Of a DNA stretch of 64,000 nt, positions 60,519 through 64,000 are shown in pieces. This stretch comes from Octopus sinensis. Its lineage: Eukaryota. The notes beneath the pieces were generated by a model. It saw only the letters and a list, made by a program, of their open reading frames with translations, had not been told where the DNA came from and searched no databases. The position numbers and the translations under genes are program-made. How positions within the stretch are numbered: the stretch's first letter is position 1; each line of letters opens with the position of its first letter. The stretch lies in NCBI RefSeq assembly GCF_006345805.1, contig NC_043007.1, forward strand, positions 17,422,001-17,486,000, given 5' to 3'.

Positions 60519-61231
60519 AATGACTAACATAAAATGTAATAAACACCAGTTAGAGATTTCAGTCAATATCTGATGATATCAATGTTACTGTGTAGTAAGA
60601 CTGTGCTGGCAGAATCATTACCGTATCAGGAAAAAATATTTAGCAGCATTTCTTCCAACTTTACATTCTGAGTTCAAATGCAGTTGACTTTGCTTCTCAT
60701 CTTTTCAGGGTTGATAAAATAAGTACCAGTTGAACAAGGGTTGGTATGATTGACTTATCCCCTCCCCCAAAATTACTGGCCTTGTGACAAAATTTGAAAC
60801 TAATGTCACGGTACAGTGAGTAACAGTATGCATAGTGAAAGATTTCCAGGTAGAGAGGCTCCGAAAGGGGTCTCAGGGAGTAGCATCCCTGCCTTCCTGA
60901 GCTAGTTTTCCGCCACATTTCTTAAAAATTGTGGTAGAGGCCTTGATCTCGAGACCACTTGTGCTAGAAACTGAAGTTGAGGGTAAGCAAGGGCATGCTC
61001 CCTGTAGAAAATCCAGCTCCAAAACAGCCTCATGGTAGCAAGGGAGAATGGGCACCAGCCAGCCCAAAGGTTGGGGTGGGCTGCACCAACCTACCTCTGT
61101 TGCTATGGCATTGAGGTAGATTCGGTCACCCCCATTAACGGGGACAAAACCCAGATTTAAAGCACTGGATGATAAAGATGATGACAGAAGTTGATATACT
61201 TTTGCAATGAACACTTACTACTACACACAAG

Positions 61232-61635
61232 ATCATCATCATCATCATTTAACGTCCGCTTTCCATGCTAGCATGGGTTGGACGATCTTGACTGAGGGCT
61301 GGCGAGCCAGATGGCTGCACCAGGCTCCAATCTGATCTGGCAGAGTTTCTACAGCTGGATGCCCTTCCTAATGCCAACCACTCCAAGAGTGTAGTGGATG
61401 CATTTTACGTGCCACTGGCATGGGGGCCAGTCAGGAAGTACTGGCAATGACCTCGCTCGAATCTTTTTACACGTGCTACTGGCACAGGTGCCAGTGAAGC
61501 GATGTTGGTAACAATCACGCTCGAATGGTGCCCTTTTACGTGCCACGGGTATGGAAGCTAGTTGGCTGCTCTGGCAACAATCATGCTCGGATGGTGCTCT
61601 TGGCACCCTACTAGCACAGGCATAAGTGCCAGTAA
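61232..61635 (-). mobile_element. SINE C
   Basis: (CAT)n plus reverse C tail and subrepeats. Confidence 0.85.
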
Positions 61636-62249
61636 GATATTATAAAGAAATGTAGAAACCCGAAATAGCTACAAGATATTCCAGTGAATTTTAGTTTTGG
61701 AATGAACACTAAGTGTGGGGACAGGCTGAAAAAGATCCAAAATAAATTTAGCGATTAACGTAATTCATATCATTAGACTGGTTGCATACTGCATGAATTA
61801 ACCTTCTATTTTTTCAATGACTTTTGTTTACAGATGATTGTAGACTTAATTAACGATATGTAGTTACTATACTAATGAAATAACAAAAGGTTATACAGTA
61901 ATTGATGTGAAATTGATAGTGATGCTTAAGGATAAGTAATTGATGAAATCCTATTTATTGGTAATTACTCTAATGGCACAATTAGTGTCATTTAGTTGAG
62001 AAGGTACATTTTGTTTTTGTTTTTAATCATTACAAGGCCTAGCAGACATTAATTGATTTTATTACTAAGAATAAGACAAAAGCCAAACTAGTATTTCTCA
62101 ACCATTTCTTTTATCTATGGACCCCTTTTGATTTCTATTTTAGTCAGGTGTACCCTCATAGCCATTCAACATTATAGTTTTATTATTAAATATTATTAGG
62201 GACTGTTTTAAAGAAATTAAAATATTTTGAGTATTGTAGAAGTATAACC

Positions 62250-62684
62250 GATTTGACGATATTTGTCCTCATCTTGATTCAGCTGATATACCCTCCAGCC
62301 TTCATCAGGTGTCTTGGGGAAATTTCGAACCTGGGTTCTCATTCCTAAGGTATTTTTCGATGTTATTATTATTATTATTCAGGTCACTGCCTGGAATCAA
62401 ACTCGGAATCTTGGGGTTAGTAGCCTGCGCTCTTAACCACTACACCATATGGCATATGGCATAGTGGTTAAGAGTGCGGGTTACTAACCCCAAGATTCCA
62501 AGTTCGATTCCAGGCAGTAACCTGAATAATAATAATAACAATAATAATATAATATAAAAAAATACCTTAGGAATGAGAGCCCAGATTCGAAATTTCCCCA
62601 AGACACCTGATGAAGGCTGGAGGGTATATCAGCTGAAACATTGTGTTAACAACAAACAAGATAAGGACAAATATCCGTCAAATC
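62250..62684. mobile_element. Head-to-head palindrome of a tRNA-headed short element carrying a hammerhead motif (family H1)
   Basis: Arms 62250-62451 and 62453-62684 with a 1-nt spacer; A box TGGCATAGTGG, B box AGTTCGATTCC, (AAT)n linker. Confidence 0.85.
62602..62647 (+). ncRNA. Minimal type-I hammerhead ribozyme motif
   Basis: GACAC CTGATGA a GGCTG-gagggtatat-CAGCT GAAA ca T T GTGTT: canonical core; stem I GACAC/GTGTT; 5-bp stem II. Confidence 0.68.
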
Positions 62685-63107
62685 TAAATAATATAACTAA
62701 TTTATTGCATCTAAATATAAACAAAAAACTCTTACAAGGACCCCCAAAAATCGTGTTGACTCTGGTTGAGAACCACTGACCTAAGCCAAAAATGTAATAC
62801 TTCCAATTTTTTTCAGCATTTTTCAGTTCTTTTCAAAACTTTTCATGGTTTATTCACCCCCCCCCCCCAAAAAAAAAAGAAAATTTCATTCTTTTCTATC
62901 TGTTAGTCCCATTCGGTTTCTTACTGCTCCACCCCTGACCTCCATTTCAGATTTTTGGGGATTTTAATTTTCTTCAAATTCTTTTCTGTATTTACAGTTT
63001 TTTTTTTGCCATTTCTTTTCTTTTGCTTTTTTTTTTTTTTGTCATTGGAGTGTCCACTTCAGTCCTTTTAATGTCTCACATATCCAATCTTATAATAGTC
63101 CTTTCTA

Positions 63108-63302
63108 ATATAGGCACAAGGCCTGAAATTTGGGGAAAGTCAATTACATCAGCCCCCAGTGTGTAACTGGTACTTATTTCATTGACTCCTAAATGATAAA
63201 AGGCAAAGTCAATCTTGACACAATTTGAACTCAGAACATAAAGACAGATGAAATGCCACTAATCATTTTGGTTGTCATGCTAACGATTCTGCCAGCTAAC
63301 CA
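63108..63302 (-). mobile_element. Older SINE B relative with the alternative tail; similar degraded copies at about 52500-52700 and 60605-60800
   Basis: Degenerate head and B box, AAGTACCAGTT body, tail CCCCAAATTTCAGGCCTTGTGCCTATA. Confidence 0.7.
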
Positions 63303-63892: not shown

Positions 63893-64000
63893 CGTCGCCT
63901 TACTGGCACTTGTGCCGGTGACACGTGAACAAAACATTCGAGCAAGGTCGTTGTTGCCAGTGCCGCTGGACTGACTGCTGTGCTGGTGGCATGTAAAAAA
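63893..64000 (+). mobile_element. SINE C subrepeats, truncated by the window edge
   Basis: Matches 38285-38395. Confidence 0.75.

Follow-up and report, generated by a model that had tools for sequence, protein, structure and literature searches.

The palindromic, tRNA-headed sequence in the window, a 64-kb stretch of Octopus sinensis DNA, is a decayed inverted insertion of a known type, in itself ordinary. Its repeated unit is the ~290-nt pseudo-LTR (pLTR) of a Penelope-type family encoding a reverse transcriptase (RT) and a GIY-YIG domain, not a separate SINE, and the palindrome is a by-product of insertion, not the element's own form. The likely novelty, as far as sequence can tell, is a coding Penelope-type retroelement whose pLTR carries a tRNA-derived head that would act as a Pol III promoter.

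The locus had been described as two arms joined head to head at CCATATG-G-CATATGG, in both of which a tRNA-like head is followed by an (AAT)n linker and then by a 3' module. Comparison of the window with itself agrees with this layout: inverted matches pair 62363–62451 with 62453–62541 (89 nt, 90%) and 62275–62366 with 62549–62640 (92 nt, 93%), all three segments are present in each arm, and the junction reads as predicted. The features are listed below in window coordinates, with unit and head positions counted from tRNA +1 (GGGCATA...).

62251–62451, minus strand: left arm, an inverted pLTR copy spanning unit positions +4 to +241 (201 nt)
62251–62364, minus strand: left 3' module, lacking 18 nt near 62280 and with them GAAAC, the cut site and the stem I 3' strand
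62365–62379, minus strand: left (AAT)n linker, from the sequence
62380–62451, minus strand: left tRNA-derived head, with a B box at 62393–62402 that carries one CpG-type change
62445–62459, no strand: head-to-head junction CCATATG-G-CATATGG, where the head and both arms start
62451–62702, plus strand: right arm, about 250 nt
62451–62524, plus strand: right tRNA-Arg(ACG)-like head, with an A box at 62457–62468 and a B box, GTTCGATTCC, at 62502–62511; putative internal Pol III promoter
62525–62557, plus strand: right (AAT)n linker, from the sequence
62573–62702, plus strand: right 3' module, the N-terminal coding stretch of a Penelope-type ORF, with its first in-frame ATG at 62573
62602–62647, plus strand: minimal type I hammerhead, with a predicted cut after 62642 and two CpG-type changes in this arm
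62648–62702, plus strand: right pLTR tail, ending near unit position 259, within one of the family's two clusters of 3' ends; putative reverse-transcription start

The right arm reaches slightly past 62684, where the original prediction had ended the element, and both of the expected promoter boxes could be located in its head. The left arm does lack the GAAAC–stem I segment that it was said to have lost, 18 nt being missing there. Within the window, ARAGORN found no tRNA and Rfam no tRNA or hammerhead at E values up to 5, and no flank duplication was found at the locus. Two further repeats lie in the window. One, at 61240–61640, consists of tandem units of ~64 nt based on a CACTGGCA...TGCCAGTG palindrome, and an inverted piece of it lies close to the window end at 63899–63966; the other is present as inverted copies at 60605–60800 and 63100–63296, 72–79% similar and 2.3–2.6 kb apart, that flank the element.

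The unit belongs to a genome-wide family and is not a fusion unique to this locus, in keeping with the original prediction. In the genome searched (G000), a hammerhead 22-mer has 5,726 exact matches, a 20-mer from the head 4,938 and a 20-mer located 60 nt upstream of the head 863, whereas reversed control words have none. By estimate, the true copy number is probably of the order of ten thousand. Copies differ by about 5–6% outside CpG sites, and sequencing runs under seven organism labels contain more than half of the unit's words.

Several of the first matches extended upstream into a frame resembling RT plus GIY-YIG, and in all 30 loci picked by ORF similarity the end of the ORF runs on into the unit, in some cases with deletions. 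The pLTR tail also lies directly before the ORF in most of the 24 loci inspected at the ORF 5' end. The order from head to ORF is complete in L328, L335, L337, L333, L341 and L183, the last three of which retain the whole tandem order of UTR, head, AAT, hammerhead, tail and ORF. The near-full copies L204, L197 and L296 have a pLTR on both sides of the ORF (L205, L206 and L270 are the same insertion as L204 and are not independent of it). The element reads head, (AAT)n, ATG, hammerhead, tail, rest of the ORF, stop, short UTR and head again.

The 3' module is an open frame from the ATG at +131 that matches the N-terminus of an 847-aa relative, P0003; for the window copy, the match covers 31 aa at 48% (E 1e-5 against a small database). 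Its derivation from a Penelope-like element, as proposed earlier, is borne out, the module being the ORF N-terminus of an RT plus GIY-YIG family. L204 gives an RVT_1 match (E 9e-9). No intact ORF copy was seen among the 150 scored, the longest stop-free stretch being 551 aa, in L289; it aligns end to end with proteins of 800–850 aa, one of which matches Pfam GIY-YIG, and the element's own decayed fragments gave no Pfam match to this domain. Relatives of the ORF number 1,583 at E 1e-30 or better, and the DNA of the closest protein relatives (60–68% identity) was not found in viral or prokaryotic collections. The family has the RT plus C-terminal GIY-YIG ORF, partial-tandem pLTRs and minimal type I hammerhead by which EN+ PLEs are recognised, as well as the optional 30–40-bp tail and adjacent inverted truncated copies. 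The clade name Penelope/Poseidon would rest on domain order and on resemblance to the element of PMC11167929. A LINE-type RT family of 24 closely similar loci on unplaced contigs (L303–L326), with frames up to about 880 aa, looks young.

The short unit had been read as a non-autonomous SINE formed by fusion. On such a reading it would be an independent tRNA-headed lineage with its own master copies that uses the Penelope protein, the coding element being transcribed separately. Short copies are indeed 3 to 6 fold commoner than ORF-linked ones, any solo pLTR contains the promoter boxes and the putative priming tail, and flank duplications of at least 7 nt (7–12 nt) accompany 7/17 plain short copies compared with 12/272 mismatched pairs. 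The short copies therefore act as SINE-like insertions, and that part of the claim stands; they share with tRNA-derived SINEs a tRNA-related head with A and B boxes, a dispersed high copy number, ends at the head and target duplications. They do not appear to form a separate lineage sharing only its 3' end with a partner. The coding element includes the head as an integral part, no position within the unit distinguishes 46 short from 43 long copies beyond the chance of 260 tests (the two lowest P values fall at the 5' boundary itself), and short and long copies show similar divergence (4.9% versus 6.0% outside CpG sites). The claim of a separate fusion is accordingly not supported, and we consider an independent lineage quite improbable. 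If solo pLTRs were occasional sources, that explanation would merge with transcription of the pLTR by Pol III.

The right arm does contain the minimal type I hammerhead with a canonical core that was predicted for it (CUGAUGA at 62607–62613, GAAAC at 62635–62639), with stems I and II forming in the fold. The consensus forecast from the single locus, CAGCC GAAACGTT GTGTT, proved to be the majority among the sampled copies. An 18-mer of the core occurs twice in the window, with 0.01 expected, and the core is carried by the family majority and intact in 16/41 copies chosen independently of it. Neither the hammerhead (z −1.15) nor the tRNA-like head has a folding energy better than that of shuffles. 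The hammerhead stems covary over 12 related elements, with two-sided changes in 8/9 pairs and 87.9% of cells paired; 0/500 shuffles were as good, and slid controls reached 20–42%. These elements were chosen by the hammerhead motif, so conservation of the core among them is by construction. The right arm itself departs from the consensus at two CpG-type positions: at 62634, where the G-C pair beside the core becomes G-U and stem II is weakened, and at 62640, where the ACGU palindrome of stem III is broken. The right-arm hammerhead in the window has therefore probably decayed. Minimal hammerheads in pLTRs are already known and are described in PMC4209133 as poor cleavers. An early sign of fragments starting at the predicted cut did not hold up, as 264 tails show no pile-up of 5' ends there (2 at −1 and 1 at +3), which is in line with a template of mostly uncleaved RNA.

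Inverted pairs had been anticipated for the family, and a count of inverted versus tandem copies bears this out. Among 69 loci, taken from the 70 hammerhead matches that come first on contig C1 (of 5,726 in all, a positional and not a random sample), an inverted piece of the family lies within 900 nt upstream in 34 and two same-strand 3' modules occur in none. Same-strand neighbours were seen in L011 and L026, among the first 30 loci. Long inverted arms at the window locus and an intact hammerhead consensus might suggest that the palindrome itself is mobile, as a MITE or foldback DNA element, or that the unit is a retrozyme spreading via hammerhead-cut circles. Arm length and end point vary between loci, however, 35/69 loci have no inverted partner, and the tandem arrays of hammerhead units that mark retrozymes are found at 0/69. 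Together with the lack of both a pile-up at the predicted cut and a flank duplication at the window locus, this makes either form of mobility very remote in our estimation. Inverted truncated copies and an optional 30–40-bp tail are both described for PLEs in PMC8557442.

The 3' ends of the family fall into two clusters about 30 nt apart, at 248–265 (66/131) and 278–286 (51/131). These match the Penelope tail of PMC11167929, where the two tail ends were shown to be internal reverse-transcription starts on mostly uncleaved RNA. In L328, two ORF-bearing copies are joined head to head at the start of the tRNA head, a long counterpart of the window locus.

When compared with 15 tRNA genes covering some of the isotypes, the majority head is closest to a tRNA-Arg(ACG) gene of G000 (48/73 identical; score 64 versus 56 for the next best). 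Its anticodon is altered and its acceptor stem is degenerate, and both boxes are in tRNA spacing. A B box between the ORF end and the hammerhead was found in 0/25 related elements with a hammerhead downstream of the ORF. Among copies of the family, the A and B boxes are conserved no better than neighbouring positions; this is expected for dead copies and so provides no support. In the genome, about 90 tRNA-Arg(ACG) genes also stand in a tandem array that repeats about every 206 bp (G000:C2:3121908-3157893), and L237 contains 7 clustered tRNA-Cys genes, four of which repeat about every 156 bp. In L240, L241, L427 and L429, the same repeat start (GGCGGTGC...) follows within about 15 nt after tRNA-Lys(TTT)-like and tRNA-Arg(ACG) genes, which suggests a repeat that either targets sites immediately 3' of tRNA genes or exchanges its tRNA head.

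The 5' ends of copies gather at the head. The position-picked loci contain 73 heads, of which 17 continue into the UTR or ORF and 56 start at −20 to +30, with none at −60 to −21; those mapped beyond −9 are short fold-backs or similar in appearance. ORF-bearing 5' pLTRs that start at the head are found in L328 (−6), L337 (−1), L335 (+4) and L446 (+5); another such pLTR starts at +30. About as many (L333, L341, L183 and L441) read through it, which indicates that tandem read-through RNA exists, and the remaining loci in the ORF 5' end samples of 24 and 20 start further downstream. A hairpin of −11.9 kcal/mol covers the 5' boundary from −20 to +17, and the (AAT)n tract is a second hot spot for 5' ends (16/72, partly mapping artefacts). 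The hairpin and the AAT hot spot imply that sequence features alone can concentrate 5' ends.

The head could accordingly be a passenger captured in the 3' UTR of an element transcribed by Pol II, as for Penelope of Drosophila virilis, with ends arising from stalling or fold-back at the hairpin. A boundary-spanning hairpin of −9 to −12 kcal/mol fits this explanation, as do the inverted partners present for 39/56 non-read-through heads and the AAT tract, which likewise gathers ends. If synthesis stalled, ends should be found at the base of the stem on its 3' side (+10 to +17); 17/56 of the non-read-through ends instead fall at −9 to −2, and the 17 plain copies mostly start at −9 to +6 with unique flanks. 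That both boxes are kept in tRNA spacing also argues against a passenger, and on balance we regard this explanation as unlikely. The last part of the 3' UTR (18 nt upstream of the head, in L031 and the family) looks like the first 17 nt of the head in an old inverted copy; it forms the −11.9 kcal/mol hairpin with the head and may be the scar of a tRNA captured by fold-back. In L165, L167, L197 and L437, copies start inside (AAT)n just after one short CT-rich motif, which suggests insertion into the AAT tail of another repeat family. No RNA dataset containing words of the unit was found among the indexed runs; RNA reads in two runs cover the unit in thousands, equally on both strands and without starts or ends.

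Another property of the family is the lack of TTTT, the Pol III terminator, on its sense strand. The 2,634-nt majority, whose first 600 nt are covered by only 3–14 copies, has 0 TTTT versus 4.8 expected from shuffles (P 0.003), and individual copies have 0.30 per kb over 77 kb versus 2.2 expected. Five other RT families of G000 have 0.9–6.7 per kb. In related Penelope-type ORF stretches of at least 1,400 nt (from 80 loci), TTTT occurs at a median of 4.1 per kb and is absent from 1/66; this lone relative, L351, has a T-rich UTR with six T-runs and no head. Rfam found no small-RNA head in 10 low-T relatives. At tRNA genes, TTTT or longer lies within 45 nt downstream in 26/28 distinct loci. T-matched relatives (26 stretches, median 1.78 per kb) provide a fairer control and give a TTTT-free 2.6 kb about an 8% chance, a point in favour of the passenger explanation; with codon-preserving shuffling of the ORF, P is 0.13. 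Against that explanation, the family's whole element lacks TTTT, UTR included, unlike 25/25 relatives with ORF and hammerhead. The absence of TTTT appears supportive, not decisive, for transcription by Pol III.

The interpretation that we favour, and consider reasonably probable, is that the locus is an inverted double pLTR insertion, that the tRNA-Arg-like head likely serves as an internal Pol III promoter, and that short copies likely come from reverse transcription starting in the repeat tail on head-initiated RNA. Pol III would start about 6 nt upstream of tRNA +1 and, from a 5' pLTR, would read through the whole ~2.9-kb unit, including the ORF and second pLTR; because no terminator would be met, it could presumably cross the whole unit. 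The element's protein would bind the tail and prime there, by analogy with Poseidon of Anolis, for which tail binding and priming by the element protein have been shown in vitro (PMC11167929). A cDNA primed in the first pLTR, or on the transcript of a solo pLTR, would be a 250–290-nt copy ending at the RNA 5' end, and priming in the second pLTR would give long, 5'-truncated copies, the template being mostly uncleaved RNA. Loci of the window type would form when two cDNAs are joined by their 5' ends or when one folds back on the small palindrome at the head start. Alongside the observed anatomy, counts and end positions, we infer promoter use, polymerase, priming and cleavage from the sequence.

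A bolder version of this proposal is that an autonomous coding retrotransposon captured a tRNA-Arg gene, which replaced its Pol II promoter, and rid its ~2.9-kb unit of every TTTT, such that end-to-end Pol III RNA would give rise to both full elements and a SINE-like swarm of solo repeats. We put this forward tentatively, as a real possibility that may well prove wrong. Uncapped Pol III RNA is a poor mRNA, which counts against a Pol III reading, as does the fact that the proposal leaves translation of the ORF from uncapped RNA without an account. The boundary hairpin, the AAT end hot spot, the read-through tandems and the strand-balanced RNA reads without ends also weigh against Pol III.

Pol III promoters are usually held to be a mark of short non-coding retroelements, whose coding partners depend on Pol II. 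A coding Penelope headed by tRNA-derived sequence and free of terminators in its body would break this rule for coding partners. It would also provide a simple route to the birth of a SINE, in which a tRNA lands in a pLTR and internal priming yields head-plus-tail copies with no separate fusion, and this could explain tRNA-plus-hammerhead repeats such as SM-alpha. The family is a warning, too, that repeat annotation will divide one element into a 'SINE' and a 'Penelope', and it may already be present as one or the other in Repbase, Dfam or published octopus repeat libraries.

The Octopus SINEs OK, OR1 and OR2 are reportedly tRNA-derived, a finding attributed to Ohshima and Okada in 1994, and the short unit, tRNA-derived like OK and OR1, may already have been named. 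OR2 is set apart by its description as a CORE-SINE in the available text of PMC4758252, a class at odds with a body that consists of PLE coding sequence. A full-text literature search found no coding PLE with a tRNA-derived pLTR head, including in the accessible portions of PMC13282606, PMC3531059 and PMC8490949.

Known systems resemble the octopus family in part. The short repeats SM-alpha and Sj-alpha of Schistosoma likewise have a Pol III-type promoter followed by a type I hammerhead (PMC6765202). They are non-coding and often tandem, with a canonical hammerhead, and the available text of PMC6765202 mentions no coding partner that shares the head. The octopus unit, in contrast to SM-alpha, is the terminal repeat and N-terminal coding stretch of a coding element, and tandem short units are rare. 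Animal non-LTR retrozymes are also short hammerhead repeats related to PLE pLTRs, as described in PMC7229834 and bioRxiv 10.64898/2026.07.22.740005, but they form tandem arrays, whereas the octopus copies are dispersed or inverted and have a tRNA head. The TRIMp3 elements (Cassandra, Helenus and Ajax) have a small-RNA-derived Pol III promoter in a terminal repeat; according to the accessible part of PMC10886601, they are non-autonomous LTR elements of 311–1,263 bp whose autonomous partners are argued to need Pol II, whereas the octopus repeat belongs to a coding PLE. The closest likeness is to Poseidon of Anolis (PMC11167929) and Penelope of D. virilis, with which the family shares a single RT plus C-terminal GIY-YIG ORF and partial-tandem pLTRs. 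As in these EN+ PLEs, a minimal hammerhead overlaps the start of the ORF, 3' ends fall at two places about 30 nt apart, and 5'-truncated copies and adjacent inverted copies occur. Characterised PLE promoters, as far as the sources describe them, are intron-associated and of Pol II type. Unlike Penelope and Poseidon, the octopus pLTR starts with a tRNA-derived head containing A and B boxes, 5' ends gather at this head, and the sense strand is without TTTT.
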